Shown here in pieces: positions 1 through 37,659 of a stretch of DNA of 37,659 nucleotides. The stretch is from an uncultured Deinococcales bacterium. GTDB taxonomy: Bacteria; Deinococcota; Deinococci; Deinococcales; JAAFIG01. The notes under the pieces were generated by a model. The model saw only the letters and a list, made by a program, of their open reading frames with translations. It had not been told where the DNA came from and ran no database searches. Each line of letters starts with the position of its first letter. Positions within the stretch are counted from its first letter, which is position 1. The stretch spans positions 1 through 37,659 of the forward strand of contig CAXTTL010000018.1 in NCBI GenBank assembly GCA_964247135.1, in the 5' to 3' direction. A program made the position numbers and the translations under genes.

Positions 1-56
1 AGAAAGAGCAGGAACTTCTCGAGGCGTGGCATCAAAAAACCTAAATTATCGCCTCG

Positions 57-81
57 AGGATGGTCTAAGACCATCCCCTAC
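57..81 (-). repeat. GTAG-family REP-like palindrome overlapping the hemW stop codon
   Basis: Minus strand reads GTAG-GG-GGATGGTCT-T-AGACCATCC, a GTAG tetranucleotide followed by an inverted repeat. Confidence 0.6.
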
Positions 82-1250
82 AAAAATTCCCTAATGACTT
101 GATTTAACACCCACAAACCGTTCGTCGTGGCTCGCACGGTTTCACCTTCAAACTCGAGCAAACCTTGAGAAACCAACTTCTCGAATTGTGGCGCAAAATA
201 ATCTCGAGCGTTCAGTCCCGCTCGAGCGGAAATATCAGCTAAATTCACGCCAGAAAGCAAGCGCAAACCAGAAAAAAGTGCGTCGGTCACAAACGACTCT
301 CGAGTGACGGGTTCAATCTCGCCACGTTCGCCAGTTAACCAGTTTGAAAGGTGCGGGTTGGTGCGGCGGTAGGCAATGACTTGAGACTCGAGCGGCACAT
401 CTTGAAAACCAATCTCGCGGTTGGGGTAATGCCCTGCCGCGCCAGCGCCCAAGCCGTAGTAAAAACGGTTTTGCCAGTAGGCAATGTTGTGTTTGGATTC
501 AAAACCTGGTTTGGCATGATTGGAAACCTCGTAACGATTCAAACCAAACTCGGCGAGCACGGATTCGGCTAGCTCGAGGGAGCGTTCTTCGTCTTCGGCT
601 CGGACTTTGACGCCAGCGCGAAAAAAGGCTGTGCCTTCCTCAATCGTTAAAGTGTAGCAACTGATGTGCTCGAGTCCCAACGCGCCAAGTGTGCGCAAAT
701 CTTGTTCGACGTTCTGCCCTGGAACGGCTGTGATCGCGTCGCTGCTGACCTGAAATCCAGCCTCGAGCAGCGTCTCGAGTGCAAGGAGTGCTTGTTTGGC
801 GTCATGGGTGCGTCCCAAAAATTTCAGCACCGAATTTTGAGTGCTTTGCACACCCACACTGGCACGCGTAAACCCCAGTTCGCGCCAGAGTTTGGCTCGA
901 GCCGCGTTGACCGTTCCAGGGTTCACCTCGAGTGTTGCTTCTTGGTTTGCCCAACCAAAATACCTGCGAATGATGCCAGCAAGGCGCTCGAGTTCATGGT
1001 CACGCAAGAATGACGGCGTGCCGCCACCAACGTACAAGGTCGTCAATTCAGTGCCGCCGTATTGTTCTGATAAGACTCGGGCATCGTTTTCGAGTTCGCT
1101 CAAATACGCTTCGACCAGTCCAGCCCGCCGCTCGAGCACGTGAAAATCGCAGTACGGGCAGATGGTTGGGCAGAATGGAACGTGAACGTAAAGGTGGGGA
1201 ATCAAGGTGAATTCATTTTCGGCTCGAGAATGAATTCTGGCAAGGGTCAA
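78..1250 (-). CDS. hemW: Radical SAM heme chaperone HemW (HemN-like)
   Basis: LYVHVPFCPTICPYCDF (HxPFC plus CxxxCxxC), YVGGGTPS, YEVSN, HNIAYW motifs. Confidence 0.88.
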   Translation of the reverse strand: MTLARIHSRAENEFTLIPHLYVHVPFCPTICPYCDFHVLERRAGLVEAYLSELENDARVLSEQYGGTELTTLYVGGGTPSFLRDHELERLAGIIRRYFGWANQEATLEVNPGTVNAARAKLWRELGFTRASVGVQSTQNSVLKFLGRTHDAKQALLALETLLEAGFQVSSDAITAVPGQNVEQDLRTLGALGLEHISCYTLTIEEGTAFFRAGVKVRAEDEERSLELAESVLAEFGLNRYEVSNHAKPGFESKHNIAYWQNRFYYGLGAGAAGHYPNREIGFQDVPLESQVIAYRRTNPHLSNWLTGERGEIEPVTRESFVTDALFSGLRLLSGVNLADISARAGLNARDYFAPQFEKLVSQGLLEFEGETVRATTNGLWVLNQVIREFL

Positions 1251-1255
1251 CTGAT

Positions 1256-2509
1256 TTATTGCCAGCGAATCCGCCCCTCAGACTCAAGATTCTTGAGTTT
1301 CTCGAGCGCTTCGGCAATCAAAGGAATCGTGCCAGCAATCAGAATCAAACCGTTTTCGGGCGTGATTTCTTTGGCGAGTTTGAGTGCATTTTCAACATTG
1401 CTCGAGATTCGGGCGTTTTGGTAGTGTGGCGCGATGGTTTCGGGTTCGGCGGCTCGAGCGGAATAACTGGCTTTGGTGCAAATCACAAACCTCGAGATGG
1501 GTTGTAAAGCTCGAGCAATCTTGGCGAAATCTTTGTCGGCTTGGCTGCCCACAATCAACGTCAGGGGCTTGAGTCGATGCGCCATCACGAACGATGCCAA
1601 GGCTCGAGCGCCGTGCGGGTTGTGAGCGGCATCCAGAAGCACGCTCGGACTTCCAGGCAACCATTCGAGCCTGCCAGGGTTCACAGCCGTTTCTAAGCCA
1701 TACTGAATCGCTGCTGCGGGTATCTCGAGGATTTGGGCGGCGGCAACGGCGAGTGCCGCATTTGAAGCTTGATGGATTCCCAGCATCCTCGAGATACCAG
1801 AAATTGTCCCGAGCGGCGTTGAAACTGAAACCTCGAGTCCATGAAATCCCAAATCTGAAACCTCGAGTTTGATTTCACGGTTTAACACCCATATTGGGGC
1901 ATTCAGTTCTGCGGCTCGAGCTTCGATCACATTGAGCGCCGAACCTGTTGCGCCGGTCACCACGGGAATACCTGGGCGGATGATGCCCGCTTTTTCAAAC
2001 GCGATTGCCTCGAGTGTGCTGCCCAAAAACTGGGCGTGATCCAGGTCAATATTCGTGATGACACTGACGTTGGAATCCACCGCAGTCGTCGAATCGAGCC
2101 GTCCACCCAAACCAACCTCGAGCACGGCATGGGTCACTCGAGATTCATGAAAATGTAGCAAGGCAATCGCGGTAATCAATTCAAAAAAAGTAGCGCCAAT
2201 GCTTTCATTCACGGCTTGAAGGGTTTTGATGTGCCGCCCGAGGTCAACTTCTGGAATCTCGAGGTTGTTGACCAAGATTCGCTCAGAAAAGCGAAACAAA
2301 TGCGGGCTGGTGAACAACCCAACACTCGAGACTGACGAAATCATGGCGTTCAAAAATCTCGAGGTGCTGCCCTTGCCATTTGTGCCAGCGGTTTGCGCCA
2401 CAATCAAACCGCGTTCAGGATGCCCTAAAACCTCGAGCAAGGCTTTCATGCGCGACAATCCAGGATGGATACCGCGTTCTTGTTGCGACCACAACCAATC
2501 GATGCTCAC
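1256..2509 (-). CDS. folC: Bifunctional folylpolyglutamate synthase/dihydrofolate synthase
   Basis: AGTNGKGST, FTSPHL, EVGLGGRLDST, EKAGII, LDAAHNPHG motifs. Confidence 0.95.
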   Translation of the reverse strand: MSIDWLWSQQERGIHPGLSRMKALLEVLGHPERGLIVAQTAGTNGKGSTSRFLNAMISSVSSVGLFTSPHLFRFSERILVNNLEIPEVDLGRHIKTLQAVNESIGATFFELITAIALLHFHESRVTHAVLEVGLGGRLDSTTAVDSNVSVITNIDLDHAQFLGSTLEAIAFEKAGIIRPGIPVVTGATGSALNVIEARAAELNAPIWVLNREIKLEVSDLGFHGLEVSVSTPLGTISGISRMLGIHQASNAALAVAAAQILEIPAAAIQYGLETAVNPGRLEWLPGSPSVLLDAAHNPHGARALASFVMAHRLKPLTLIVGSQADKDFAKIARALQPISRFVICTKASYSARAAEPETIAPHYQNARISSNVENALKLAKEITPENGLILIAGTIPLIAEALEKLKNLESEGRIRWQ

Positions 2510-2521
2510 ACGTCAGTAAAA

Positions 2522-2557
2522 CACAAAAACCCCGCCACGAATGACTCGAGTGACGGG
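2522..2557 (-). terminator. Intrinsic terminator after hppA
   Basis: Minus strand CCCGTCAC-loop-GTGGCGGG followed by GTTTTTGTGT. Confidence 0.6.
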
Positions 2558-2573
2558 ATCACAAACGAACAGA

Positions 2574-5180
2574 CTATTTGTCGAGGAAAGCTTTTAAGTT
2601 CTTGTTCTTCGGTGTGCTGAATTGCACGTTGTTTTGACTCTTGTAGCCCTCGGCTTCCATGTTGTAGGTGTAATCGCCAGCCTCGAGGTTCTCGAACAAT
2701 TTTCCACTGATGCCGCTTTGCACCTCAGTGCCGCCTTTAAACAGCGTGATTTTAGCGTTTGAGACATTGGAGAAAACCCGCAAGAAACACGGACATTTGG
2801 CGTTGCTGGCATCGGTTCTGCCACTTGCGACGTTAACTTTCATTTCGCTGCCAAGGTTTTGACCGTCGGCTTGAAGTTGATAGGTGTAATCGCCAGCCGC
2901 AGGTTTCTCGACGGAGTAGACCCATTCGCCGTCGTTGCCAACGCTTTCACTACCGACTTTGCTGCCGTTTTGCAAAACGTCGAACATCATGCCTGGTTTG
3001 CCCGTGCCGCGCAGCATAAAGTCCTGGGCATCGAGTTGTTCGTTCAAGCTTGGGTAAGAGAATTTAAACTCGTTCATGCCGGCAGCCAGCGCCGTTCCAG
3101 TTGCTCCAGCGCTCGAGTCTGCCAGACCACCAAAGAGGCTCGAGCCTAAAAGCGGCACGATCAGCAGCGCGACGATGTTTGCAACTTTGATCATCGGGTT
3201 GATGGCTGGACCGGCGGTGTCCTTGTACGGATCGCCGACGGTGTCACCCGTGACGGAGGCTTGGTGCGCGAACGAACCTTTTTTCAGCACGACACCATTT
3301 TCGTCTTTCAAATCACCCGATTCGATGTACTTTTTCGCGTTGTCCCACGCTCCGCCACCCGTGGTCATTTGGATTGCCATGAAAATACCGACCACGATCA
3401 CGCCCATTAGAAGACCACCGAGCGCCTTTGGTCCGAGAATCAAACCCACCGCAATCGGTCCAAGCACGGGCAGCAACGCGGGAACGATCATTTCACGAAG
3501 CGCGGCGTCGGTGACAATACCGACCGCTTTGGCGTAATCGGGTTTTTGCGTGCCGAGCATGATGCCTGGCATTTCACGGAACTGACGGCGAACCTCGAGC
3601 ACCACCGCACCGGCGGCGCGTCCCACGGCTTCCATGCTCATGGCGGCGAAGAGACAGGGCAGAATGCCACCGATGAGCAAACCAGCGACCACCAGCGGAT
3701 CGCCGAGGTCAAAACGCAGCGGCAAGCCGCCAGCAGGAACGCGTTTGTCAAGTTCGGCGGTGTAAGAGGCGAATAGTGCCAGTGCAGCAAGTCCAGCCGA
3801 ACCGATGGCATAGCCTTTGGTCACGGCTTTGGTGGTGTTGCCCACGGCATCCAGAGGGTCAGTGACGCCGCGAACCTCGTCGCCCAACTCTGCCATTTCG
3901 GCGATTCCACCAGCGTTGTCGGTGATTGGACCGAACGCGTCCACGGTCACGATCACGCCGCACAAGCTAAGCATCGCCATCGCCGCAATTGCCACACCGT
4001 ACAGCCCAGCCAGAGCGAACGCGACCAGCGTTCCAGCCACAATCACCAAGACTGGAAACGCCGTGGATTTCATGCCCACAGCCAGACCGGCAATAATGTT
4101 TGTGCCGTGACCCGTGATGCTCGCCCTCGAGATGCCGCGCACGGGCGCAAATTCGCTCGAGGTGTAATAGTCGGTGATGTACATCAAGCCCATCGTGACT
4201 GCCAAACCGACCAGGCTGGCGAAGAACAGGTTCAGGGCGTTGATGCCGTCGCCCGAAACCATGGTGGATGCGAAGTAAAAGCCGATGGCGGCAAGAATCA
4301 CCGAAACCCAGACGCCACGATACAAGCTGCCCATGATGCCTTTTGGCGTGGCGTCTTTTGGCGCGTTGATAAAGAAAATACCGACCACCGACGCGACAAT
4401 ACCAAAACCGCCAACGATCAACGGATACCACATCACCGAATCGTTGGTCGGGAATTTGAGATGCCCGAGCAACAAGGCGGCAATCGCGGTGACAATCAAT
4501 GTCTCGAACAAATCGGCAGCCATACCGGCGTCGTCACCGACGTTGTCGCCGACGTTATCGGCAATCACGGCTGGATTGCGTGGATCGTCCTCGGGAATGC
4601 CAGCCTCGACCTTACCGACCAAATCCGCGCCGACATCGGCGGCTTTGGTGAAAATACCACCGCCCAGACGCGCGAACACCGAAATCAGGCTCGAGCCGAA
4701 ACCGAGTCCAATCAGGGCGTCTGGATTAAAAAGCCCTTGGGCGTCTCGAGGGGAAAAGTTGGTTAAAAGTGCCAGCACCACAATGCCCAAACCGACCACA
4801 AACAAGCCCGTGACCGCGCCGCCCCAAGTGGCAACGCGCATGGCTGGTCCAAGACCACCGTAAGCGGCTTGTGCCGTGCGCACGTTGGCACGAACGGCGA
4901 CGTTCATGCCGATAAACCCTGCGGCGGCAGAGGCGGCGGCGCCGATCAAAAAGTAAATCGCGCTGGTGATGCCCAGTGCTATCGCAATGAGTATCGCCAG
5001 CACCACCGCGACGATACCGACCGCCGTGTACTGTTTGGTCAGGTACGCTCCCGCGCCCTCTTGAATCGCGGCGGCAATTTGCCGCATTCGGTCATTGCCA
5101 TCTGGCAACCTGAGAATGTTCAGCGTCAAAAAAACGCCGGCTGCCAATGCGATCACACCTGCAATCAATGGAATTAACAC
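2574..5180 (-). CDS. hppA: Membrane H+-translocating pyrophosphatase (probably K+-independent) with a C-terminal ~190 aa beta-rich extension
   Basis: [46 protein letters not shown] (Lys at the K+-independence position), [22 protein letters not shown] upstream of the GTG start. Confidence 0.95.
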
Positions 5181-5368: not shown

Positions 5369-6160
5369 TTATTGGTTTTTCATTTTCTCGAGCAAATCCG
5401 TTAGTGTCGCCGCGTCGAGCGCTCCAAATTTTCGCTCGAGAATTTGGGATTTCCTACCAATCAAAACCGTTGTGGGTAAACCAATAATCTGCAATTCACG
5501 CTGCAAGCTGCCAGCATCCAGCAAACTCGAGACTTGCAGGTTTTCAGTTTGCAAGTATTTTTGAATCGCGCTTGAGCTTTCGCCTGAGTTGACGAACACG
5601 ATTTGCGCCCCGTTTTTGGAGGCACTGGCAAGAAGCGGCATTTCTGAACGACACGGCGCACACCAAGTCGCCCAGACGTTGAGCAGCATCGGAGGTTGAA
5701 GATCAGAAAATTGAACATGCTCGAGGCTGCCGTTGATGTTGAGGCGTTGCAGACTGAGGTTGTCAGGAATCGGATTTGAATTGTTGCCGGCGGGTTTCAG
5801 TAGTAAGGGTACAAACGAAATCAGTCCCGCCAGCAAGCCTCGAGAAGCCAGTGACAGGGTTGAGCCTCGAGCCTTCCACAAAACCAGCATCAACGCCCCA
5901 GCCACACCCCAAGACCAGGCAAGCGCACCTTTGCGCGGGTCAAAAAGCTCGAGCGAGATCGAATTGAAGTGCTCGAGCGCGTAACCGAGACGACCGGCAA
6001 CCACATAAGCGAGAACTATGGGAAGCACAATCTGTTTGGGTTTAATGACTCGAGATTGTTCGACCAAAAGCAGGAGGGCAAACACGCCCAGCACAAAAGA
6101 CAACCGCGACCACTCGAGCACCAACGCGCCAATTTTCAGACCATCGGGCATGAATTCCAT
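5369..6160 (-). CDS. TlpA-family thioredoxin-like disulfide reductase with an N-terminal Lgt-like membrane domain
   Basis: LLNVWATWCAPCRSEMP (WCxxC), GLPTT cis-Pro loop; N-terminal TM helices with GRLGYAL; start set at ATG 6160 (TACCCT-N7-ATG) rather than 6370. Confidence 0.8.
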   Translation of the reverse strand: MEFMPDGLKIGALVLEWSRLSFVLGVFALLLLVEQSRVIKPKQIVLPIVLAYVVAGRLGYALEHFNSISLELFDPRKGALAWSWGVAGALMLVLWKARGSTLSLASRGLLAGLISFVPLLLKPAGNNSNPIPDNLSLQRLNINGSLEHVQFSDLQPPMLLNVWATWCAPCRSEMPLLASASKNGAQIVFVNSGESSSAIQKYLQTENLQVSSLLDAGSLQRELQIIGLPTTVLIGRKSQILERKFGALDAATLTDLLEKMKNQ

Positions 6161-6194
6161 TCGGTCTAGGGTACGACAATTTGCTGGCTCGAGT

Positions 6195-19862: not shown

Positions 19863-21872
<2,010 letters not shown>

Positions 21873-24433: not shown

Positions 24434-24623
24434 GTTATTACTGTACCGTTCTGAGCAAAACCACACAATGCCAAAAAACCATTCGTGCCAAAAAACGGTT
24501 AATTCCAAAAAACCGTTATAGTGTTTTCAGGCGAGCCGTTTTCAAATGCTCGCAAATCGAAATCTGCCCGCCACACTCGAGTTTTTTCGGGTGTGGATTT
24601 TTTACCAAATTTTAAGGAGAACC

Positions 24624-25163: not shown

Positions 25164-25326
25164 AAAACCATCGCGGCTCGAGCTTTTAACATCGAAGCCT
25201 TTGTGACTTTTGATGTCTTACAAAGGTTTTTTCGCTTAAATCTTGAGGTGGAAGGTTTTAGCGGTAGCATGTTAAAAGCTGTTGATTCGTCGAGTGAAGA
25301 CTGACTGGATTTCAGAGGAGCGAACC

Positions 25327-26337: not shown

Positions 26338-26642
26338 GTCTTGAGCTTTTATTTTGATTTGTGTCATTTTGGAACATGCCCTACAAGCCCACTACGTATT
26401 GAATACTTCAGATTTGGTTTTGTAGATGGTTGATTAAATCGAGATTTGACGCGAACTTCAACGATATGTTACGCTAATTACAGATTCAATATCATCTTTT
26501 ACTCTCATCGACTAAGTTTTGATCCGTTCAAAGACCAAACTCAGCGCACTCGAGATCAAATTGCTCGAGTACAGGAGAATATTTTCTATCGCAACCAAAC
26601 AATCAGCAATTCGGCTTGCACTCACAAGCCAAAGGAGAACCT

Positions 26643-27098
26643 ATGAACACCGATTTGATCCTCGAGCATTGGATGGGACACCGCCGACTTTCACGCCGCA
26701 CCCTCGAGTTATTCCCCGAAGATCAACTGTTCAGTTTTAGTATTGGCAGTATGCGACCTTACGGCAAACTGGCGCACGAGATGCTGCAATTTATTCCGAC
26801 TTTAAACGGTGTGGTGACTGGCGAATGGAAATGGCAATCGGCACATGATGCTGCCAACAGCAAAGAGGCACTTTTAAAAGCCTGGGACGAAACCGACGCG
26901 CAATTGCTCGAGATTTGGAAGAACGTGACCGTGGATCGTTTGAACGCCATCGAAGCCGACAATTTCTGGATGCCCGAAGCCAGCAGCAACCTCTGGAAAG
27001 TCCAGTATTGGGTGGACAATGAAATCCATCATCGCGGTCAGGGTTATGTTTACTTGCGGGCGCTTGGCATTGAACCACCAGCATTTTGGGAACGCTAA
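26643..27098 (+). CDS. DinB/YfiT-family protein
   Basis: HWMGHRRL, LAHEM, DNEIHHRGQGYVYLRALGIEPP; RBS AAGGAG. Confidence 0.88.
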   Translation: MNTDLILEHWMGHRRLSRRTLELFPEDQLFSFSIGSMRPYGKLAHEMLQFIPTLNGVVTGEWKWQSAHDAANSKEALLKAWDETDAQLLEIWKNVTVDRLNAIEADNFWMPEASSNLWKVQYWVDNEIHHRGQGYVYLRALGIEPPAFWER

Positions 27099-27105
27099 AC
27101 AAAAC

Positions 27106-27150
27106 AAAAACTCGAGCACAGCCGAAATCAATGGCTGTGCTCGAGTTTTT
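27106..27150. terminator. Bidirectional intrinsic terminator
   Basis: AAAAACTCGAGCACAGCC-loop-GGCTGTGCTCGAGTTTTT (18-bp arms). Confidence 0.85.
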
Positions 27151-27394
27151 CATGAGACTTGAAATGCTGAATGGCGAGATCAAAGACTTGCGTCGCCAAT
27201 CGGTCAGCCTTTCAGGGTCCCAAAGCAAGACCTTTCAACACCGTTTGATTCAAAAACAGCTTCATCGACACCGTTAACAATGCGCGACCAGTTGTACTGA
27301 CCTGCAAGTTTACTCGAGCAAAACGCCAACCTCGAGCCGCTTGAATGTGGAGTCTCGGGCGGAGATTGATTTCGTCTCGAGGTCATGCTAATGT

Positions 27395-27419
27395 TTGGTT
27401 ACTTCACAAAGTAAACCAA
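27395..27419. promoter_or_regulatory. Candidate ROK-repressor operator
   Basis: TTGG-TTACTT-CACA-AAGTAA-A-CCAA inverted repeat just upstream of the ROK gene start. Confidence 0.45.
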
Positions 27420-27436
27420 CCAAGAAAGAGTGGACG

Positions 27437-28660
27437 ATGACCTCTAAAGGTGATCCCAGCAGCTTGCGTGCCTTCAACCGACGGGTTGTACTTGACCACG
27501 TGCGACGCATTGGACCAATCAGCCGCACCAGACTGGTCGAATTGACTGGACTGAGCGCTGCCTCGATCACTGGTGTCACCGCCGAACTCATTGAAGACCG
27601 CTGGTTGGTCGAACAAGGTATTGGAGAGGCAGGCTCGAGCGGGGGTCGACGCCCAATTTTCATGGACATCAACTACCAAGCGCACTACGCGGTTGGCTTG
27701 CAACTCAACGGACACGGACATCGTCTCGAGGGTGTCATCACGGATTTGTCCTTAAAGGTGCTCGCACACCTCCGCGAAGACCTGACCGAACACGATCCGA
27801 CCAAAGTGACCGCACAGATCGCGGCACTCTGCAAACGGCTTTACAAACGCGCCAAAGTCTCGAGCGAAGATGTGATTGGCATAGGCATTGGACTCTCCGG
27901 TGTGATCGATGCCTCGCGTGGCATTGCGGTTCATGCACCAGTCTTGGCGTGGCGACAGGTCAACATTGCGCAACTGGTTGGCGAAAAAACCGGGCTGCCA
28001 GTCTGGGTGGACAACGACGTGAACTCGCTCGCCGCTGCCGAAAGGCTGTTCGGACACGCCAAACATGCACGCAATTTTCTGGTCATTGCCATCGGACGCG
28101 GTTTGGGTGCAGCCATCATCTGCAATGGAGAGATTCACCGGGGACGTGATGGCGGCGCGGGCGAATTTGGTCACAACAAAATTCGGATCGGCGGGCGCAG
28201 GTGCAGTTGCGGACAGCGGGGTTGTCTCGAGGCGTACACGATTGAACCAGCACTGCTGGCGCAATTTGTGGCGCGTCACCCGAAGAAAAAAGGCATCGCC
28301 ATCCCAGAACTCGTGCAACTTGCCGAAGCTGGACACCAAGGCGCACTCGAGACCTTGCAAACCGCCGGGACATTGCTCGGATTGCACCTGTCGTACCTGG
28401 TCAACGCCTTCAATCCCGAATTGATCGTTGTCGCTGGCGAGGGGACGGAACTCGGTCCAACGTACTTTGAACCTCTTCGTGAAACCTTGCGGACTCGAGC
28501 CTTTGATGGTCTCGCCAACGAACTGCCCTTGATCGTCGTGCCCTGGCAGGACGACGGTTTCACGCCCTGGACGCAAGGAGCCGCCAGCCTTGTGGTGCAG
28601 CACGCCTTTGACACGGCAGCGCTCGAGAATTTGCAACGCACGCCTCAACTGGCTTTTTGA
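27437..28660 (+). CDS. ROK-family transcriptional regulator (NagC/XylR-like)
   Basis: N-terminal HTH (ISRTRLVELTGLSAASIT), GGRRP, DNDVN, GAGEFGH, CSCGQRGCLE. Confidence 0.93.
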   Translation: MTSKGDPSSLRAFNRRVVLDHVRRIGPISRTRLVELTGLSAASITGVTAELIEDRWLVEQGIGEAGSSGGRRPIFMDINYQAHYAVGLQLNGHGHRLEGVITDLSLKVLAHLREDLTEHDPTKVTAQIAALCKRLYKRAKVSSEDVIGIGIGLSGVIDASRGIAVHAPVLAWRQVNIAQLVGEKTGLPVWVDNDVNSLAAAERLFGHAKHARNFLVIAIGRGLGAAIICNGEIHRGRDGGAGEFGHNKIRIGGRRCSCGQRGCLEAYTIEPALLAQFVARHPKKKGIAIPELVQLAEAGHQGALETLQTAGTLLGLHLSYLVNAFNPELIVVAGEGTELGPTYFEPLRETLRTRAFDGLANELPLIVVPWQDDGFTPWTQGAASLVVQHAFDTAALENLQRTPQLAF

Positions 28661-28709
28661 TGTTTGTCCGCCATTGGACCCAAAGCCCTCAACCTTGAAG
28701 GAGAAGACC

Positions 28710-28765
28710 ATGAAAAACGCTCACTGACCGCCCTCGCTGCGCTCGGCACTGCTGGACTTTTGCCA
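28710..28765 (+). pseudogene. Frameshifted signal-peptide relic of a lost secreted (binding) protein gene
   Basis: AAGGAG RBS plus ATG; adding one A to the A5 run gives MKKRSLTALAALGTAGLL. Confidence 0.45.
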
Positions 28766-28945
28766 AAGCGCGAAGCAGAAAAGTTGTGTTCTGGTCGGTG
28801 CAGAATTTCGGGCAGGGGTTCACTTGAATCATCGAGAAGCTCAGTACCGAAAATAAACATCAAACGAACATGACCTGACAAGAACTTGCAATTAAGTGTG
28901 CAGTGTTGTTCAATAAAAATTACACCACAATCCAAGGAGGTATTC

Positions 28946-30250
28946 ATGTTTATCAGCACATCCCTCAGGCGGGGCGCTCTATTCATCAGCGGCGTGGCTC
29001 TCATGGGTCTCGCGCTCACCGTAGGCAGTATGGCAGCCGACAACCCAGTGACCATCTCGCTCCTGGCTGGCGGCAACGACGCTTCGGCACTTAAGTTTGG
29101 AAATGACCTCGCAAACAAATTCATGGCGGCAAATCCCACGATCAAGGTGACCGTGGAGACCAGACCTGGCGGGACGGACGGCGACAACCTGGTCAAAACG
29201 CGCCTGGCGACGAAGTCCATGAACGATGTCTTCTTTTACAACTCAGGATCGCTGCTACAGGCGCTCAACCCTGACAGCCAACTCGTGGACCAATCGAAAC
29301 AGCCGTGGGCAAAGCTCGTGACAGCGGATTTCAGACAGTCCGTCGGGACCGCGAACGGGATGTACGGCGCTCCCACCTCGAGCACCTTCGACGGTGGCAT
29401 CATGTACAACAAGAAGGTGTACGCGAAACTTGGCTTGAAAGTGCCCACGACCTGGGCAGCGTTCATCAGCAACAGCCAGAAGATCAAGGCGGCGGGCATC
29501 ATTCCGGTGCTCGTTTCATACGGCGATACCTGGACCAGTCAATTGTTCGTCCTGGCTGACTTCGCCAACGTCAGCAAACAGTCACCCGACTGGGCAACAA
29601 GGTATACAGCCAACAAGGCGAAGTACGTGGACCCCCCTGCGCTGGCTGGCTTCACGCACACCGCCGAAATTTTCAGCAAGCAGCTCATGAACAAGGACTT
29701 TGCATCCTTGACCTTCGTCAACGCGCTCAAACTCCTGGCGACTGGAGAGGCAGCCCAGTATCCGATGATCACCGTGGTCATCGGCAACGTCACCCAGTCC
29801 AACCCGGCTCAGGTCAACGACATCGGGTACTTTGCCATGCCAACCGATTCCGGAACGCCTCGCGCCACGGTGTGGGGGGCGGGCGGAGCCTATATTCCGA
29901 AAACCACGACTGGCGACAAACTTGCTGCGGCTGAGAAGCTGGTAGCCTTCCTCAATTCGCCTGCTGGCTGTGATATCCAGAACAACAGCGGTTCGGTGTC
30001 GGGTCCCTACGCCATCAGCACCTGCAAAGTCCCTGCCAATGCGCCAGCCCTCGTTGCCGACGAGCAGAAATACCAGGCACGCAAGCAGACGGGTCTCGCC
30101 CTGGAATTCCTCTCCCCGATCAAGGGACCGAACCTGGAAAAAATTCTCGTTCAGGTTGGATCCGGCATTTCCTCAGCGAAGACCGGAGCGGAATTGTACG
30201 ACCAAGATGTCGTCCAGCAAGCCCAGCAACTCGGAATTCCGGGTTGGTGA
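28946..30250 (+). CDS. Carbohydrate ABC transporter substrate-binding protein (CUT1)
   Basis: RBS AAGGAGG, signal peptide, FMAANPTIKV, YNKKVYAKLGLKVPTTW. Confidence 0.9.
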   Translation: MFISTSLRRGALFISGVALMGLALTVGSMAADNPVTISLLAGGNDASALKFGNDLANKFMAANPTIKVTVETRPGGTDGDNLVKTRLATKSMNDVFFYNSGSLLQALNPDSQLVDQSKQPWAKLVTADFRQSVGTANGMYGAPTSSTFDGGIMYNKKVYAKLGLKVPTTWAAFISNSQKIKAAGIIPVLVSYGDTWTSQLFVLADFANVSKQSPDWATRYTANKAKYVDPPALAGFTHTAEIFSKQLMNKDFASLTFVNALKLLATGEAAQYPMITVVIGNVTQSNPAQVNDIGYFAMPTDSGTPRATVWGAGGAYIPKTTTGDKLAAAEKLVAFLNSPAGCDIQNNSGSVSGPYAISTCKVPANAPALVADEQKYQARKQTGLALEFLSPIKGPNLEKILVQVGSGISSAKTGAELYDQDVVQQAQQLGIPGW

Positions 30251-30355
30251 ACGGATACCGGTTTCGGTAAATCCTTGCCCATTGCACCCTAGGAGGTCGG
30301 TGTCATCTGCCGACCTCCCACCATCTTCACCACCCAAATTCGAGGAGGAGTATCC

Positions 30356-31276
30356 ATGTCGACTGCCACCCCGAAATTGCCAGCGGCGACCCCCACGGAG
30401 CATCAATCGAAGAAACGCCGCATGTGGTCGACGTACCCCACCTGGTTCTTTGTGCCCACAATCGTTCTGTATGTCGTCTTCTTCGCACTTCCGACGTTCT
30501 CGTCGTTCTACTTCTCGCTAACCCGCTGGTCGCTGTTCGATGCCACCTTCATTGGGTTCGGCAATTACGTTCAGTTCTTCAAGAACCCGCAGCTCTACAC
30601 GAGCTTCATCCACACATTGATCTACGCGGCGCTCACCTCAGGAACAAAAGTCGTCCTCGGCTTCCTGATCGCCCTCCTACTCACCTCTCCGGTCATCGGT
30701 CGTGGCTACCTGCGTGCTGTCGTGTTCTTTCCAGTCCTGCTGTCTACCATTGGGGTGGGCATCCTTTTCAAATCTCTGCTTGACCCCTTCCACGGCATCG
30801 TCAACGCCATACTCGGGGTTTTCGGGCTTCCCCAGCCGGGCTGGTTCACCGACCCAAATCTTGCCCTGTACTCCATCGCTGGCGTCGACATCTGGAAGGG
30901 CGTCGGCATCGCCACCCTGATCTTCATGGCTGGCATCGTCGCCATTCCCAGCGAGTACTTCGAGGCAGCCCGAATTGATGGAGCGACCTCGAGGCAAGTG
31001 CTCCGTTCCATCACGATTCCGCTCTCCCGTAACGCGACTGTGACCGTCATCATCCTCTCCTTGATCGGTGGACTTCGATCCTTCGACATCATCTGGGCGA
31101 CCACAGGCGGTGGTCCCGGCTTCACCAGCGACGTTCTCGCCTCCGTGATCTACAAGGAATACCAGGCGGGTTTCTACGGTCTTTCGACGGCTGGCAACGT
31201 CGTCCTGTTCATGGTCGTCACCGCCATCATGGTTCCATTGTCCTACGTTCTCAACCGCAATCAGGTCGATCTATGA
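30356..31276 (+). CDS. Carbohydrate ABC transporter permease
   Basis: FIGFGNY, EAARIDGA (EAA loop), six TM helices. Confidence 0.93.
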   Translation: MSTATPKLPAATPTEHQSKKRRMWSTYPTWFFVPTIVLYVVFFALPTFSSFYFSLTRWSLFDATFIGFGNYVQFFKNPQLYTSFIHTLIYAALTSGTKVVLGFLIALLLTSPVIGRGYLRAVVFFPVLLSTIGVGILFKSLLDPFHGIVNAILGVFGLPQPGWFTDPNLALYSIAGVDIWKGVGIATLIFMAGIVAIPSEYFEAARIDGATSRQVLRSITIPLSRNATVTVIILSLIGGLRSFDIIWATTGGGPGFTSDVLASVIYKEYQAGFYGLSTAGNVVLFMVVTAIMVPLSYVLNRNQVDL

Positions 31277-32106
31277 AACCGAACCAACGGCGTGCTTGGA
31301 TCGTTGGTGTCCTTGCCATCCTGGTATCGATTGTGGTCTTCCTTGTCCCGTTCTCCTTCGTGGTCTTGCAGGCAGCGAAGAGTCCCGCCGAAGCCTCGAG
31401 TCTCGCATATTCCTTGCCATCGAAATGGCAGTTTTTTGAAAACCTGATGACGACCCTGGCTGCAAACGACGGTTTCTTGATTCGGGCACTCATCAACAGC
31501 GCCATCCTGACCGTCAGTTCCGTGACCCTCACGGTCATCATCTCTGCGATGGCGGGTTACGTGCTCGCCCGCAAACAAAGCCGATTGGGACCGCTGGTCA
31601 ACTTTTTCGTGCTCGCCGGATTGATCGTCCCACCGGCGGTCGTGCCCACCATCTGGGTGATGCAGAGCCTGCACCTCTTTGCCACCATGCCTGGCATGAT
31701 TCTCCTGGAAGCCACTTTCGGACTGTCGTTCAGCATCCTGCTCTTTCGGAGCTTTGTCAGCACCGTGCCTCGAGAAATGGACGAGGCGGCGGTTCTGGAC
31801 GGGGCTGGTCCGATCACACTGTTCACCCGAATCGTGCTCCCATTGCTGCGCCCCGTGATCGTGACGGTCATCGTCGTTCAGTCCGTCTTCGTGTTCAACG
31901 ACTTCGCGCTGCCCCTGTATTTCCTGCCCGGAGCGCAGGGTGTGACGGCTCAACTGGCGCTCTTTACCTTTTCGGGTCAGAACTTGAGTTTTTACAACCT
32001 GCTCTTCATGGCGATCCTCATCATTACCATCCCGCCACTTGTGGGTTACGTTTTTTTCAACCGACAGATCGTCGGCGGACTCACGGCTGGCGCGGTGAAG
32101 GGCTGA
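31273..32106 (+). CDS. Carbohydrate ABC transporter permease
   Basis: EMDEAAVLDGA, GLTAGAVKG C-terminus; ATGA overlap with the upstream gene. Confidence 0.93.
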   Translation: MKPNQRRAWIVGVLAILVSIVVFLVPFSFVVLQAAKSPAEASSLAYSLPSKWQFFENLMTTLAANDGFLIRALINSAILTVSSVTLTVIISAMAGYVLARKQSRLGPLVNFFVLAGLIVPPAVVPTIWVMQSLHLFATMPGMILLEATFGLSFSILLFRSFVSTVPREMDEAAVLDGAGPITLFTRIVLPLLRPVIVTVIVVQSVFVFNDFALPLYFLPGAQGVTAQLALFTFSGQNLSFYNLLFMAILIITIPPLVGYVFFNRQIVGGLTAGAVKG

Positions 32107-32184
32107 TGTACCTTGAACGGTTGATGGTCTTTCGACGACGGATCGACTCGAGCACATACTGTTCTATCGTCAGGAGTCACTGAA

Positions 32185-32382
32185 ATGACTCAACGTATCG
32201 CAGTGGTCACTGGTGCAAACCGTGGCATAGGCTTGGCAATCGTGCGTCAACTTGCGCAGGCGGGCATGAAAGTCATCGCAACCTCACGTGATGCCGAAAA
32301 GGGCAGGGCGGCGGGCCAGAAACTGGCTGGGCAGGGCGAAATCGAGTATGAAACCTTGGCAGTTGATGATGAGGCGACATGA
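32185..32382 (+). pseudogene. Truncated SDR oxidoreductase (N-terminal 65 aa only)
   Basis: IAVVTGANRGIGLAIVRQL Rossmann motif; ends before the catalytic region. Confidence 0.8.
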
Positions 32383-32621
32383 TCTTCTACACTTTGGGGG
32401 TGACACCTGCGGAGCCAGGGTATACCAAAGCACGGATCGCGCCGCGACTGGGAAGGCTGGTGTGGGCGAAAGGCAATGTTCCAACTCCACACGGCATGAT
32501 CTCGCTCGAGGTGAACGCTCATCAGGTGCTGATCGAATCACCCGTACCAGTAATCGTAGAACTTACGGGTCAGCCAGCCCACGACTTGCCCAGTGGAAGA
32601 CATGAGATCACGATCCAGTGA
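32376..32621 (+). pseudogene. C-terminal fragment of an alpha-L-rhamnosidase
   Basis: DMIFYTLGVTPAEPGYTKARIAP...GNVPTPHGMI parallels VAGLAPAAPGYKKLEIKP...TPYG in the intact GH78 gene downstream. Confidence 0.75.
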
Positions 32622-32717
32622 TCAACTGCGCAGCACTCGAGGATGCCAAGCTGTTGAATCACGTCTACGCTGCGCCATACCGGTTCATCAATCAATTGGA
32701 GACCCAGAAATGAACGA

Positions 32718-32848
32718 CTCGAGCTTTTCTGGGCGTGGCTGGACAGTATTCCACAAATGGAGCGCTTTGTGCGGCTGCGTTCATTGTGCTGCTGGCGTGG
32801 CGGGCAGGAAGGCGCGAGCCTGAAAAAAGTGAAATCGTAACGGCTTGA
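32718..32848 (+). pseudogene. Orphan 3' end of a membrane protein gene
   Basis: RAFLGVAGQYSTNGALCAAAFIVLLAWRAGRREPEKSEIVTA*; in-frame stop directly upstream and no start codon. Confidence 0.35.
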
Positions 32849-32966
32849 CTACCGTGACCACACGCAAAGCCAAACACGCGCTTGACTCTGTTAAAGGATC
32901 AAGCACACAAGATAAATGACACAACACTCGAGTTCCTTGATGTTCAAGGACTGCAAAGGACTGCAC

Positions 32967-35792
32967 ATGACAAGCCAAACGCAAACCGTCAACGTAACCA
33001 AGCCATCCCTCGAGCACCTTCACGAGCACCTCGGCATCGGCAACCCGCGCCCGAGAATTTCTTGGACAATTGAAACCGACACGCCAAACTGGTTGCAGAC
33101 CGCGTATGAACTCGAGCTTCACCAAAATGGAACTTCAGAATCCAGTGGCAAACTCGAGTCGAGTGAATCGGTGCTTGTGCCTTGGGTTTTTGAAAACCTC
33201 AAATCTCGAGGACAGTGTTCATTACGGGTTCGTGTTTGGGACAGTGCAAACCAGATTTCGGATTGGAGTGAACGTTTAGACTTCGAGCTTGGCTTGCTCG
33301 AGACTTCAGATTGGATGGCACGGTTTATCACACCCGATTGGGAAGAGGACATTTCCAAACCTCAACCCTCTCCCCTGCTGCGCCGAAAATTTGAACTGAA
33401 ATCTCGAGTCAAAAACGCAAGGTTGTACGTGACCGCGCTTGGCGTGTACGAGGCATACATCAACGGGACTCGGGTTGGAGATCATGTCCTTGCACCTGGT
33501 TGGACGAGTTACGACCACCGTATTCGCTATCAAACCTTTGACGTGACAAATCTGCTGCATGATGGTCAAAACGCCATTGGCGCGATGATTGGCGACGGTT
33601 GGTATCGGGGGGGACTCGGTTTTGGTGGCGGACGGCGCAACGTTTATGGCGACAAACTGGCACTGCTGGCACAACTTGAGGTTCTATTTGAAGATGGAAC
33701 AATGGAACGAATCGTCACGAACGATTCTTGGCGCTCGAGCACAGGTGCAGTCCAAAGCAGCGACATTTACGACGGCGAAATCTACGATGCCAGACTCGAG
33801 CAACACGGCTGGAATACGGCAAATTTCGATGCTTCAAAATGGTCTGGCGTGAACACCCTCGAGCGGGATTTCTCGAAACTCGAGTCACCCCTCAGTTCAC
33901 CAGTGCGCCAAATCGAAGAGGTTGCAGCAGTCAGCATCACCACATCACCAAGCGGTAAAACGCTGGTGGATTTTGGTCAAAATTTGGTGGGCGGGGTTCG
34001 ACTTTCAGTGCAGGGCGACGCTGGGCAAACCATCACGCTTCGTCATGCCGAAGTGCTCGAGCTAGGCGAACTTGGCACGCGACCACTGCGCCATGCTGCT
34101 CAAACCGATCAATACATTTTGCGCGGTGCTGAACTCGAGGTCTGGCAACCGCGTTTTACGTTTCACGGCTTTCGTTATGTCGAAATTTCAGGCTATCCAA
34201 GCGAGATCAAACTCGAGCATCTGGTGGCAGTGGTGCTGCATTCTGACCTCGAGCGCACGGGCTGGTTTGAATGCTCAGACCCACTGGTCAACCAATTGCA
34301 TCAAAACATTGTCTGGGGAATGCGCGGGAATTTCTTGGATGTCCCCACCGACTGTCCGCAACGCGACGAACGACTCGGTTGGACGGGCGACATTCAAGTG
34401 TTTGCACCAACCGCCAGTTTCTTGTTTGACAGCGCGGGTTTCCTCGAGTCCTGGTTAAAAGATTTAAAAGCCGAACAAGACAGCGATGGCGTTGTGCCAT
34501 TCACCATTCCAAACGTGCTGGGCGTGAGCGGTGTCACACCCATGACCGCCTGGGGCGATGCCGCCGTGATCGTGCCTTGGGTGCTTTACCAGCGTTACAA
34601 CGACCCCAGAATTCTCGAGGTGCAATTTGAGAGCATGAAAGCCTGGGTCGATCACCTCGAGCGCATCACAAAGCCCAGCCTGCTGTGGGACACAGGACCA
34701 CAATTTGGCGATTGGCTCGACCCGAGCGCCCCACCAGAAAATCCTGGGGACGCCAAAACGCCAAGTGCGGTGGTTGCCACCGCGTACTTTGCACGGTCTG
34801 CACAGTTGCTGGGACAATCGGCTCGGGTGCTCGAGAAAGCAACCGAAGCTCAACATTACCTCGAGCTTGCCGCCAAAGTTCGCGCCGCGTTTGTTGCCGA
34901 GTACATCACGCCAAACGGCAGAATCCTTGGCGATGCCACCACCGCTTACGCCCTCGCGCTCGAGTTTGAATTGTTGCTCGAGCCTCAACGACAACGGGCG
35001 CAAAAACGCTTGCTCGAGTTGGTGCGCAACAACGGCTACCGCATCAGCACCGGTTTTGTCGGTACGCCACTGGTTTGTGATGCCTTGTGCCAAGGTGGTT
35101 TTGTCGAAGCTGCCTACCGCCTGCTGTTGCAACGCCAGTGTCCAAGTTGGCTTTACCCCGTCACGATGGGCGCAACCACCGTCTGGGAGCGTTGGGACAG
35201 CATGTTGCCCGATGGTTCGATCAACCCTGGCGAGATGACCAGCTTTAACCATTACGCCCTGGGTGCGGTTGCCGATTGGTTGCATCGCTCGGTGGCTGGA
35301 CTCGCCCCCGCCGCGCCAGGGTACAAGAAACTCGAGATTAAACCGCTCTTGGGCGGGAATTTCAGCCACGCTCGAGCCAGTCACATCACGCCTTACGGTC
35401 TGGCAAGCTCGAGTTGGAAGATTGAAAACAACCAATTTGAACTCGAGGTTGTTGTTCCAGCCAACACCACCGCCACCGTGTACCTGCCAAATGCAAAAGA
35501 ATCTCTCGAGGTTGGCAGTGGCACACACCGTTGGACGCAACTGTACACGCCACCCGTGATTCAACGAGCGAAGTTAACGCTCGAGATCACTGAAGGCGAA
35601 TTGCTCGACGATCCTGAAGCTTACGCTGTGGTGTTGGAAACGGTTCGCCAGCACAACCCGACAGCGGTCACCAACGACGGGCGTTTGCGTCATACGGGCA
35701 GTATCAATTTGCGGCAAGTGACGGGTTTTATGCCCAAGTCGCTCGAGCTACAAGAAAAGCTGGAGCAGGCTTTACTTACATTGAATCGTTGA
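32967..35792 (+). CDS. Alpha-L-rhamnosidase, GH78
   Basis: VDFGQNLVG, FTFHGFRYVE, PTDCPQRDERLGWTGD, GATTVWERWD, SFNHYALGAV. Confidence 0.95.
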   Translation: MTSQTQTVNVTKPSLEHLHEHLGIGNPRPRISWTIETDTPNWLQTAYELELHQNGTSESSGKLESSESVLVPWVFENLKSRGQCSLRVRVWDSANQISDWSERLDFELGLLETSDWMARFITPDWEEDISKPQPSPLLRRKFELKSRVKNARLYVTALGVYEAYINGTRVGDHVLAPGWTSYDHRIRYQTFDVTNLLHDGQNAIGAMIGDGWYRGGLGFGGGRRNVYGDKLALLAQLEVLFEDGTMERIVTNDSWRSSTGAVQSSDIYDGEIYDARLEQHGWNTANFDASKWSGVNTLERDFSKLESPLSSPVRQIEEVAAVSITTSPSGKTLVDFGQNLVGGVRLSVQGDAGQTITLRHAEVLELGELGTRPLRHAAQTDQYILRGAELEVWQPRFTFHGFRYVEISGYPSEIKLEHLVAVVLHSDLERTGWFECSDPLVNQLHQNIVWGMRGNFLDVPTDCPQRDERLGWTGDIQVFAPTASFLFDSAGFLESWLKDLKAEQDSDGVVPFTIPNVLGVSGVTPMTAWGDAAVIVPWVLYQRYNDPRILEVQFESMKAWVDHLERITKPSLLWDTGPQFGDWLDPSAPPENPGDAKTPSAVVATAYFARSAQLLGQSARVLEKATEAQHYLELAAKVRAAFVAEYITPNGRILGDATTAYALALEFELLLEPQRQRAQKRLLELVRNNGYRISTGFVGTPLVCDALCQGGFVEAAYRLLLQRQCPSWLYPVTMGATTVWERWDSMLPDGSINPGEMTSFNHYALGAVADWLHRSVAGLAPAAPGYKKLEIKPLLGGNFSHARASHITPYGLASSSWKIENNQFELEVVVPANTTATVYLPNAKESLEVGSGTHRWTQLYTPPVIQRAKLTLEITEGELLDDPEAYAVVLETVRQHNPTAVTNDGRLRHTGSINLRQVTGFMPKSLELQEKLEQALLTLNR

Positions 35793-35845
35793 TGGTGCTC
35801 GAGGTGCTTCTCTAGGATTTGGCAATTTGACAAAAACGGTGTGCT

Positions 35846-35873
35846 GTAGGGACAAGACGCGTCTCGTCCCTAC
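35846..35873. repeat. GTAG-family REP-like palindrome (one mismatch)
   Basis: GTAGGGACAAGACG|CGTCTCGTCCCTAC, homologous to 8200-8227. Confidence 0.8.
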
Positions 35874-35957
35874 GCAATTTGGGCGTTTTTTGTGAATATC
35901 CCTAAACGACTTTGATTTCGCGTGATGAACAACATTTTTGAGGCAACTCGAGCTTGA

Positions 35958-35995
35958 TTCTGCCCTAGACAGAATCCGCTTTTTAATGGTATGAT
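35958..35995 (+). promoter_or_regulatory. gyrA promoter with an RDRM-like (DdrO) box over the -35
   Basis: TTCTGCCCTAGACAGAA (35958-35974) contains the -35-like TAGACA; extended -10 TGGTATGAT (TATGAT at 35990-35995), 18-bp spacer. Confidence 0.7.
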
Positions 35996-36102
35996 TGAGC
36001 GTTCGCAAACGGCGAGACTCAAATCGCCTTTTTCACGTCTGACTCGAGAAACACCACGCATCAAAACCGTTCAATCTCGAGCCATCAAATCACTGGAGGA
36101 AT

Positions 36103-37659
36103 ATGTCAAACGCCGTCATACCTGTCGAAATCACCGATGAAGTCAAAACCGCATTTATCAATTACGCCATGTCCACGATTGTGGATCGGGCGCTGCCCGA
36201 CGTGCGTGACGGCTTAAAGCCCGTACAACGCCGTATTCTGTACGCCATGTTGCAAGAGGGGCTTTCGCCAGGTCGTAAGCACCAAAAAAGCGCGGGTGTG
36301 GTCGGTGAGGTCATCAAAAAATACCACCCGCACGGCGACAGCCCGATTTACGAGGCGATGGTTCGCATGGCGCAATCCTGGAACTTGCGCTACCCCGTTG
36401 TGGACGGTCAAGGCAACTTCGGCAGCATCGACGGCGACCCCGCCGCCGCCTACAGGTACACCGAAGCCCGCATGACCCGAGCCGCCGAGGTGATGCTCGA
36501 GGATATCGAAAAAGAGACGGTCGATTTCAAACCGAACTTTGACGAAACCACCGAAGAACCCACCGTGCTGCCTGGTGGCTTTCCGTACATGCTGGTCAAC
36601 GGCGCGGTCGGCATCGCCGTGGGCATGGCGACCAACATTCCGCCGCACAACCTGACCGAGATTTGCAATGGTTTGCTCGAGATTATCAGAAACCCAGAGA
36701 TTAATTTGGATGATCTGATGAAAATTGTGCCAGGACCAGATTTCCCAACAGGTGGACGCCTGGGCAAAAAAGGCATCCGTGAGGCTTACGCCAGCGGTCA
36801 AGGCAGCATTCGAGTGCGCGGCAAAGCCAGAATTGAAGAAATCAAGGGTCGCAGCCAGATTGTGATTACCGAAATCCCGTATCAGGTCAACAAAACCAAT
36901 TTGCTGACCACGATCTCGGCGCAGTACCGCGAGGGTAAAATTCCTGATATTGCCGCATTGCGTGACGAATCGGATCGCACCACACCTGTTCGGATTGTCA
37001 TTGAACTCAAGCGCGGCACGCTGCCAGATTTGGTCTTAAACCAGCTCTACAAGCACACGCAACTCCAGACCAGTTTTAACATCATCAACTTGGCAATTGT
37101 AAACGGCGCTCCAAAAGTCTTGGCACTCAAAGAGGGCATGACGCTGTTCCTGGATCACCGCAAAAACGTGGTCACGCGCCGCGCCAGGTACGACCTTAAA
37201 AAAGCCCGAGAGCGCACCCACATTCTCGAGGGACTGCTTATTGCGCTCGATAACATCGACGAGATCATTCGGATCATTCGCGCCTCGCAAACGGGTGCGG
37301 AAGCCAAAGATGGTTTAATGGCGCGATTCAGCTTCTCCGAAATTCAAGCCCAAGCGATTCTCGACATGCGTTTGCAACGCCTGACCGGTCTCGAGCGCGG
37401 CAAACTCAACGAAGAATACAATGCGCTCCTCGAGACGATTGGTTTCCTCGAGTCGATTCTGGCAGATGAAAGCAAACTCTGGAACGAAGTCAAAAAAGAA
37501 ATCACGGTCATTCGTGACAAGTACGGCGACGAACGCCGCACGGTCATTACTGACTTATCCGAAGACATCAACAAAGAAGACCTGATCGCCATTGAAGACA
37601 TGGTGATTACCGTCACCAAAGGCGGTTACATCAAACGCACGACGCTCGAGGCGTACCGT
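36103..37659 (+). CDS. gyrA: DNA gyrase subunit A (5' part, runs off the window; missing from the ORF track)
   Basis: Translated by hand from [94 protein letters not shown]. Confidence 0.96.

Follow-up and report, generated by a model that had tools for sequence, protein, structure and literature searches.

CTCGAG, a highly iterated palindrome shared across a family-level clade of uncultured Deinococcales

The stretch of DNA analysed here (the window, 37,659 bases) is contig C18 of the metagenome-assembled genome (MAG) of an uncultured Deinococcales bacterium, and its genes and spacers are strewn with one exact palindrome, CTCGAG. The window holds 249 copies of the word against 8.51 expected from 100 dinucleotide-preserving shuffles (standard deviation 2.81, largest 16), none of which reached 249. 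Within called genes 145 sites read CTC-GAG, 25 xCT-CGA-Gxx and 36 xxC-TCG-AGx; the other 43 lie outside called genes, 14 of them inside a 333-amino-acid open reading frame (ORF, 5369-6370) that was dropped by the gene caller, which leaves about 29 truly intergenic sites. A first-pass annotation, made from the letters alone, had likened the word to HIP1, the highly iterated palindrome (HIP) of cyanobacteria. Its claim of 27 sites at bases 1-2000 was matched exactly on recounting, about 29 sites claimed for the GH78 gene became 30, and the occurrence in all three frames and between genes that it described is borne out by the frame split above. The features of the window that the text refers to are as follows.

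1..37659, no strand: the whole window, 249 CTCGAG (6.6 per kb) and 0 copies of the reversed word GAGCTC (word counts)
1..2000, no strand: densest stretch named in the first-pass annotation, 27 sites, which sit in a radical-SAM/HemN-like gene and a Mur-ligase-like gene at 12.0 and 14.4 per kb (counts, Pfam families)
19863..21857, minus strand: NAD-dependent DNA ligase (LigA) gene, 15 sites, used as the marker for fetching related loci (Pfam, counts)
27096..27394, no strand: example of an intergenic spacer, with five sites at 27111, 27140, 27313, 27331 and 27376 (site positions)
28501..32500, plus strand: site-poor stretch, among the only three 4-kb stretches of the genome with six sites or fewer (low-density scan)
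28886-32103: sugar ATP-binding cassette (ABC) transporter genes in the site-poor stretch, 0.7-2.4 sites per kb (per-gene counts; SBP_bac_1 match)
32916..35792, plus strand: GH78 alpha-L-rhamnosidase gene, 30 sites, 10.4 per kb (Pfam, counts)

The genome to which the window belongs (G000) comprises 5,091,702 bases in 386 contigs, the longest of 115,556 bases, with a G+C content of 52.7% and an estimated completeness of 84%. It contains 33,925 copies of CTCGAG (6.66 per kb), a 24.8-fold excess over the 1,369 expected from zero-order composition, and the word is the commonest 6-mer of the genome, more than two-fold above any other. A maximal-order Markov expectation, under which observed/expected is only 1.24, was rejected as a null because the conditioning 5-mers themselves mostly derive from CTCGAG. 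Over all 386 contigs the density ranges from 2.6 to 11.3 per kb (median 6.8), the mean gap between sites is 148 bases, and 825 windows of 5 kb hold a mean of 33.3 sites (standard deviation 7.9, minimum 8). The three 4-kb stretches with six sites or fewer amount to 12 kb in total. A fragmented, incomplete MAG leaves room for an artefact of assembly, binning or library construction, and confinement of the excess to this contig had been named in the first-pass annotation as the sign of one. The word is, however, on every contig, and a like density is seen in six separately deposited MAG loci and in 18 other species-level genomes; sites lie in frame within conserved genes and at orthologous positions in two species. 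These observations refute an artefact, to which we attach practically no probability. We hold with high confidence that the excess is real and that CTCGAG is a HIP-class feature maintained by a site-specific force.

Gene calling gave 4,385 genes covering 85.6% of the genome. Coding DNA holds 28,849 of the sites (6.62 per kb), 17,970 of them as CTC-GAG, 4,259 as xCT-CGA-Gxx (frame 1) and 6,620 as xxC-TCG-AGx (frame 2). The preponderance of the first of these frames, at 62% of coding sites, would follow if the cause lay with proteins or codons, i.e. in a demand for Leu-Glu, in codon-pair bias or in base composition, and in high-GC relatives codon usage does yield part of the excess (synonymous shuffles give 0.7-1.2 per kb). 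Against this, DNA outside called genes (G+C 45.8%) has 5,108 sites, or 6.86 per kb where 0.20 are expected. The strictest noncoding set (28,744 bases in which none of the six frames stays open for 50 codons) contains 146 sites, a density of 5.08 per kb where 0.13 is expected, so that DNA free of open frames is enriched 39-fold. Within genes, the observed number is 7.2 times that left by a synonymous-codon shuffle (4,003 ± 38), and a shuffle of codon order leaves 1,659 sites. A dicodon null (a first-order codon chain) absorbs most of the signal by construction, since the conditioned pairs mostly contain the motif; it still predicts only 2,350 sites in frame 1 and 3,545 in frame 2, which are exceeded 1.8- to 1.9-fold. 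Disappearance of the excess in codon- and dicodon-preserving shuffles had been proposed as a refutation, and the excess persists in both. The codon usage of Leu-Glu pairs, a comparison proposed at the same time, points the same way: 77% of the pairs are encoded as CTC-GAG against 11% expected from codon usage, while elsewhere than in the motif Leu is encoded by CTC in 15% of cases and Glu by GAG in 32%. There are 23,212 Leu-Glu pairs where residue frequencies predict 9,877 (2.35 times), and the reverse pair Glu-Leu stands at 1.01 of expectation. A cause at the level of proteins or codons is thus refuted by the synonymous shuffles, the open-frame-free DNA and the dicodon test, and we find it hardly credible. 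The force acts on the DNA word itself, irrespective of coding.

The pressure for CTCGAG has altered the proteins, adding new Leu-Glu pairs. This was seen in 40 orthologues (13,405 aligned residues, 55% identity) compared with G020, a member of the phylum that lacks CTCGAG. In the aligned parts there are 212 Leu-Glu pairs in this genome and 79 in G020; at the CTCGAG-coded Leu-Glu positions of this genome G020 also has Leu-Glu in 39 of 183 cases, whereas at the Leu-Glu positions of G020 this genome has the same pair in 44 of 79. The Glu-Leu control is symmetric (36/114 and 36/90). The commonest counterparts of Leu-Glu in G020 are conservative, namely Leu-Asp, Leu-Ala, Leu-Gln, Ile-Glu and Val-Glu. 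Gene by gene, Leu content, Glu content and the Leu-Glu excess all increase with site density, with a rho of 0.50 for Glu content, and density is related only weakly to protein conservation (rho -0.20) and to the axes of codon usage (first principal component, rho 0.15), at whose extremes the low-density genes do not lie.

Among the long genes, the 21 with the fewest sites include nine for solute-binding proteins of ABC transporters, of which one lies in the window (within 28886-32103); these nine proteins are poor in Glu (2-4%) and have no Leu-Glu excess. The other annotated genes of this set are mostly permeases or secreted peptidases, five have no Pfam match, and no transposase or phage family was hit by any of the 21. 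Loci of this set elsewhere in the genome are L228, L229, L231, L233-L235, L242 and L243.

The favoured unit is the complete bare hexamer and not a sub-word, a codon pair or a longer repeat. No base exceeds 39% at any flanking position, and the extended word GCTCGAGC accounts for 12.5% of sites, a share that does not exceed what the multiplied flank frequencies predict. Among the 16 NTCGAN words CTCGAG alone is enriched, GTCGAC and TTCGAA being depleted about ten-fold; the excess is therefore not a TCGA effect, and the link to the TaqI core TCGA drawn in the first-pass annotation fails. The 18 words that differ from CTCGAG at one position have observed/expected ratios of 0.5-1.8, except for two that contain CTAG. 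Gaps between sites of less than 25 bases are under-represented and gaps of 50-200 bases are in excess; a gap of 6 is never seen because it would create GAGCTC. No helical (~10.5 bp) phasing was seen in the distances between sites.

GAGCTC, the SacI site, is absent from all 5.09 Mb of the genome and present in at most 25 copies in 16 of the 19 family genomes. A gene of the SacI nuclease family adjoins a Dam-like methylase on contig C320 (G000:C320:1064-2985, outside the window). Only 8 of the 19 family genomes yielded a homologue of this nuclease, so avoidance of GAGCTC is wider than the detectable enzyme. Other palindromes are also nearly absent: GGGCCC (1 copy), CGGCCG (3), AGGCCT (4), CGTACG (5), GGATCC (7), CCGCGG (11) and CAGCTG (15). 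GGCC has 380 copies genome-wide (0.02 of expectation) and CTAG stands at 0.07 of expectation. The near-absence of so many palindromes points to a heavy, long-standing restriction load.

Conservation of the sites was followed in a sister species, G005, of which 350 kb were fetched (6.44 sites per kb) and 237 kb aligned at 85% identity. Identical sites in G005 number 729 of 887 in the CTC-GAG frame, 175 of 250 in frame 1, 286 of 351 in frame 2 and 145 of 178 in noncoding DNA, i.e. 70-82% against 45% for all hexamers in each class. Other codon pairs for Leu-Glu are conserved in 5-50% of cases. Ranked by conservation, CTCGAG comes 1st of 112 noncoding words, 3rd of 520 words in the CTC-GAG frame, 27th of 489 in frame 1 and 2nd of 483 in frame 2. 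Once made, sites are retained, per base, about four times as well as the surrounding DNA, in coding and noncoding DNA alike. The two species share 1,338 sites, with 351 private to this genome and 277 private to G005; private sites on both sides indicate turnover, nearly all of it by single transitions from or to one-off words, and sites arise by ordinary point substitutions. The differences number 53, 51 and 40 at position pairs 1/6, 2/5 and 3/4 and follow codon degeneracy. Spread as they are over all six positions, they show no hotspot of the kind that 5-methylcytosine would leave.

That noncoding sites are conserved, and that CTCGAG ranks first there, would be expected if the sites were directly selected because a protein that organises the nucleoid or chromosome binds them, and the scarcity of very close site pairs would agree with this. 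For HIP1, Xu et al. favour selection, with a structural function for the sites (PMC5861425). The distances between sites lack helical phasing, however, the 5-kb counts are over-dispersed, no candidate protein was found, and the keeping of some 34,000 sites by individual selection would need a sizeable benefit per site. We consider such direct selection decidedly improbable.

The ligase locus places the word in a lineage. The six closest LigA loci all come from MAGs named ‘Deinococcales bacterium’, in agreement with the earlier assignment to the Deinococcota, and carry 5.8-8.4 CTCGAG per kb, one of them at 65% LigA identity. Within the family, all 19 sampled genomes (five genera, this genome included) have 4.3-6.8 CTCGAG per kb. 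The rest of the phylum was sampled in 120 further genomes, none from the same family. Intermediate densities are found in genus g9 (about 0.6-1.1 per kb), genera g13, g14 and g15 (1.4-3.4), family f4 (1.7-2.9) and family f2 (0.6-2.0), whereas the 63 genomes of genus g7 (family f3) have 26-1,010 copies, or about 0.01-0.2 per kb. Samples of 137-200 kb each gave the following values.

G086: coding 3.51 and noncoding 3.20 per kb; 3.0 times the synonymous shuffle; Leu-Glu observed/expected 1.45
G114: coding 2.93 and noncoding 3.07 per kb; 4.4 times the synonymous shuffle; Leu-Glu observed/expected 1.50
G019: coding 1.61 and noncoding 1.63 per kb; 1.8 times the synonymous shuffle; Leu-Glu observed/expected 1.19
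G020: coding 0.04 and noncoding 0 per kb; 0.2 times the synonymous shuffle; Leu-Glu observed/expected 0.89

Noncoding CTCGAG stands at 10 times expectation in G086, 11 times in G114 and 7 times in G019, and is depleted in G020; coding and noncoding densities agree within about 10% in every genome examined. The force on CTCGAG is thus common to the family and weaker in much of the phylum. Genus g7 as a whole (e.g. loci L072-L081) strongly avoids the word: a 200-kb sample has 0.2 of the synonymous-shuffle expectation and 0 copies in 48.9 kb of noncoding DNA.

One speculative reading of this gradient, to which we give a low probability, is that CTCGAG is read by a single ancient sequence-specific factor common to the Deinococcota, and that the fate of the word is set by what the factor is coupled to. 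In the present family the word would mark the cell’s own DNA and would have been driven near saturation; in several other genera it would stand at one-quarter to one-half of that density, with genes and spacers alike, and g7 would have purged it to 0.01-0.2 per kb. Some members of the phylum may be in culture.

Two observations on the window belong beside these comparisons. Synteny with the related loci L001 and L002 stops near 24.4 kb; over the stretch from about 24400 to 31857, beyond that point, identity is about 46-49%, i.e. there is no real alignment. The ORF at 2574-5180 (minus strand) encodes an H+-pyrophosphatase of 868 amino acids, in which the pump domain extends to residue 674; the remaining ~190 residues form a tail whose CarboxypepD_reg-like match is weak.

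The window shows no gene to which the word could be ascribed, as the first-pass annotation had also said. The genome has 12 methyltransferase-like genes, of which eight were profiled over 30 relatives (the other four are on C112 and C189, the methylase on C320 and a fragment on C4). None of the eight tracks CTCGAG, clear orthologues occurring in 1 to 8 of the 18 family relatives, and no methylase family seen in the family genomes is both universal and uniform; the set of 12 comes from a genome that is 84% complete. G008 and G015 gave no match to a C5-methylase despite 4.3 and 5.2 sites per kb, and the single-contig genome G011 gave none to an N6_N4 methylase. Dam-like matches fall into three unrelated groups, and TaqI/Eco57I-like matches, frequent both within the family and beyond it, are heterogeneous. 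The Vsr family had no match in the incomplete genome; the XhoI nuclease family had none either, a weak result as the search control matched no genome. Proteins of about 490 amino acids with PF07669 matches in the relatives were tried as candidates and rejected: they form two subfamilies of one methylase-like protein, and the present genome offers only a weak match to a gene on C169. Some of them lie beside ORFs of 688-1075 amino acids, and by size alone they are read as type I (HsdM-like).

These results bear on the model that Elhai proposed for HIPs, a ratchet of methylation-directed mismatch repair. Here a CTCGAG- or TCGA-specific methyltransferase would mark the sites and repair would favour the methylated strand, so that new sites become fixed and old ones are protected until density saturates. 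Put forward to explain HIP1 and the alternate HIPs, the model predicts that density levels off at a value governed by how far repair reaches (PMC4390886). The near-equal coding and noncoding densities in six genomes over a four-fold range of density would fit saturation, and the family is rich in methyltransferases, with the 12 genes here and up to 13 C5-methylase matches in some relatives. Four methylase genes stand outside the profiling, the genome is incomplete, and different enzymes could share one specificity. The profiled enzymes are patchy, however, the three genomes named above each lack a match to one methylase family, and Dam-like proteins are of three kinds; there is no Vsr match, and the differences between species (53, 51 and 40) show no 5-methylcytosine hotspot. 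A repair bias acting on single positions could not, we infer, lift a hexamer 25-fold with its neighbours at baseline, and the favoured hexamer would then have to be recognised as a whole. A methylase- or repair-driven process, as the first-pass annotation had offered, is not supported, with no match to Vsr in the 84% complete genome, no family-wide methylase among the eight profiled, no depleted neighbour words and no position-specific decay. We think such a ratchet unlikely and weight it below a link to DNA uptake because no partner methylase turned up.

Very-short-patch repair beside a C5 methylase (CCWGG in Escherichia coli) has a modest effect and depletes particular one-off words. Like the force on CTCGAG, if that is a repair process, it is a case of DNA repair changing the frequency of a methylase target. 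With CTCGAG, by contrast, the excess reaches 25-fold, no depletion of neighbour words is seen and Vsr gave no match. The marks of word bias by restriction-modification or Vsr would be a cognate nuclease or Vsr and depleted one-off words; none was found, the nuclease search being a weak one.

Some further observations arose in the search. A 258-amino-acid N6_N4 methylase (G000:C189:4080-6798, L010) lies between genes with 1.3 and 2.8 CTCGAG per kb, and the region looks like a recently acquired restriction-modification cassette. At G000:C238:1958-6217 (L088) there is a 1,419-amino-acid ORF with weak STAND NTPase and NB-ARC matches and 44% G+C, which the codon-based gene caller rejected; the stretch has only 5 CTCGAG in 4 kb, Rfam gave no RNA family on this site-poor contig, and the ORF is probably a recently acquired defence-type gene. 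A scan of IMG/VR for triple-site stretches, aimed at phages of the clade, gave only high-GC viral contigs among the matches listed. A search of sequencing runs listed one run, with 0.05 of the sampled words, and no RNA run.

CTCGAG is a genuine highly iterated palindrome of this uncultured Deinococcales family-level clade. Four features that characterise the HIP class are present: an excess of a palindrome of at least about 15-fold, occurrence in all frames and in noncoding DNA beyond codon usage, conservation, and sharing across a clade. HIP1 of cyanobacteria (GCGATCGC) is likewise a short exact palindrome, over-represented tens of fold and clade-wide. It too lies in all frames and between genes and is conserved between species above control words (PMC5861425), a result that the comparison with G005 repeats for CTCGAG; the likeness to HIP1 claimed at the outset thus holds in over-representation, placement and interspecies conservation, as Xu et al. 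describe these for HIP1. Function is unsettled for both. The two differ in word, phylum and length (6 bases here, 8 in HIP1), and the present case is not HIP1 proper, whose core CGATCG has 47 copies here (observed/expected 0.03). The density is 6,663 per Mb, where 300-2,700 per Mb are quoted for HIP1 (PMC4390886). HIP1 is accompanied by DmtA and DmtC, whereas no co-distributed orphan methyltransferase is among the eight of 12 profiled here. The alternate HIPs GGCGCC, GCsGC and rCCGGy are, like CTCGAG, palindromes of 5-6 bases at HIP-like frequencies, each found in a single cyanobacterial genome and tied to a resident methyltransferase according to the same source (PMC4390886). Their occurrence is sporadic, whereas CTCGAG is common to a family of five sampled genera and present at lower density in other families. 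No report of CTCGAG hyper-abundance in bacteria was found in the full-text literature searched, which does not reach the methylome supplements where CTCGAG methylation in relatives might be listed; the sole match for over-representation of the word concerned the honey-bee genome (PMC3903499).

The account we favour, as somewhat the better supported, is that of a family-level iterated palindrome favoured at the level of DNA which acts as a signal of self DNA and spreads by biased transmission. With its exact 6-bp palindromic form and nearly indifferent flanks, the word would be read by a dimeric sequence-specific protein, most likely in a route of DNA uptake, processing or recombination, for which it would mark DNA as ‘own’. 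In passing between genome copies or cells, alleles with a site would then have an advantage over those without. Such a molecular drive has been proposed for uptake sequences, and it would fit recent results on transformation and HIP1. That the maintaining force is linked to uptake or recombination is possible, and we advance this part tentatively; a chromosome or uptake signal had been among the alternatives of the first-pass annotation. It is given most weight here for the sharing of the word at the level of family and phylum, the natural competence of the phylum and the recent HIP1 results. The phylum is known for natural transformation and for DNA repair. A distribution that is graded at family and phylum level, as in the dialects of uptake sequences, weakly supports the link, as do the scarcity of pairs closer than 25 bp and the excess at 50-200 bp. 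Transformation of a cyanobacterium is more efficient when HIP1 is present (bioRxiv 10.1101/2024.09.10.611283), and HIP1 abundance correlates with DNA-uptake genes (PMC13756078). Both ComEC and DprA were found in all five family genomes searched and also match most control genomes.

The uptake sequences of Pasteurellaceae (uptake signal sequence, USS) and Neisseriaceae (DNA uptake sequence, DUS) are likewise family-level, lie in genes in all frames, affect protein sequence and, as proposed for CTCGAG, are thought to spread by biased transmission. Here, too, the word is shared by relatives that have competence genes, a weak test as these genes are near-universal.

A number of points weigh against a link to uptake or recombination. 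Uptake sequences are non-palindromic words of 9-12 bases at about one per kb, with a known receptor in Neisseria, and CTCGAG, a 6-base palindrome at 6.7 per kb, does not have that form; we know of no uptake bias in this Deinococcales clade. A 6-mer that occurs every 150 bases does little to tell own DNA from foreign. Our searches yielded no reader protein, and none of our data link CTCGAG directly to uptake. ComEC and DprA are necessary for the idea, but their presence is hardly discriminating, since they are near-universal in bacteria. As density tracks Glu content, the sites are partly limited by substrate rather than held at a set point, and the over-dispersed 5-kb counts mean that spacing is not regular at that scale. 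Of 351 sites, 58 showed compensatory turnover where the null, a naive one, gives 39.5 ± 6.4; the effect is modest. Site conservation is compatible with functional selection and biased conversion alike and cannot separate them. Composition-based binning may also have discarded foreign, site-poor DNA from the MAG, in which case the uniformity of the word is overstated.

For work on these organisms, CTCGAG skews codon usage, amino-acid composition and k-mer signatures, and so affects binning, gene prediction and the inference of horizontal transfer. To our knowledge, three decades of work on highly iterated palindromes have been confined to a single phylum, and mismatch repair, nucleoid structure and DNA uptake still compete as accounts of their function. 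CTCGAG adds a second case, independent of HIP1 and denser, with another word and no obvious partner methyltransferase, against which the essential features of HIP1 can be told from the incidental ones. The gradient of density in the phylum, running from purging to saturation, opens the way to comparative and experimental tests, and if one ancient factor does read the word throughout, the Deinococcota would serve as a natural dose series for finding out the role of such palindromes.

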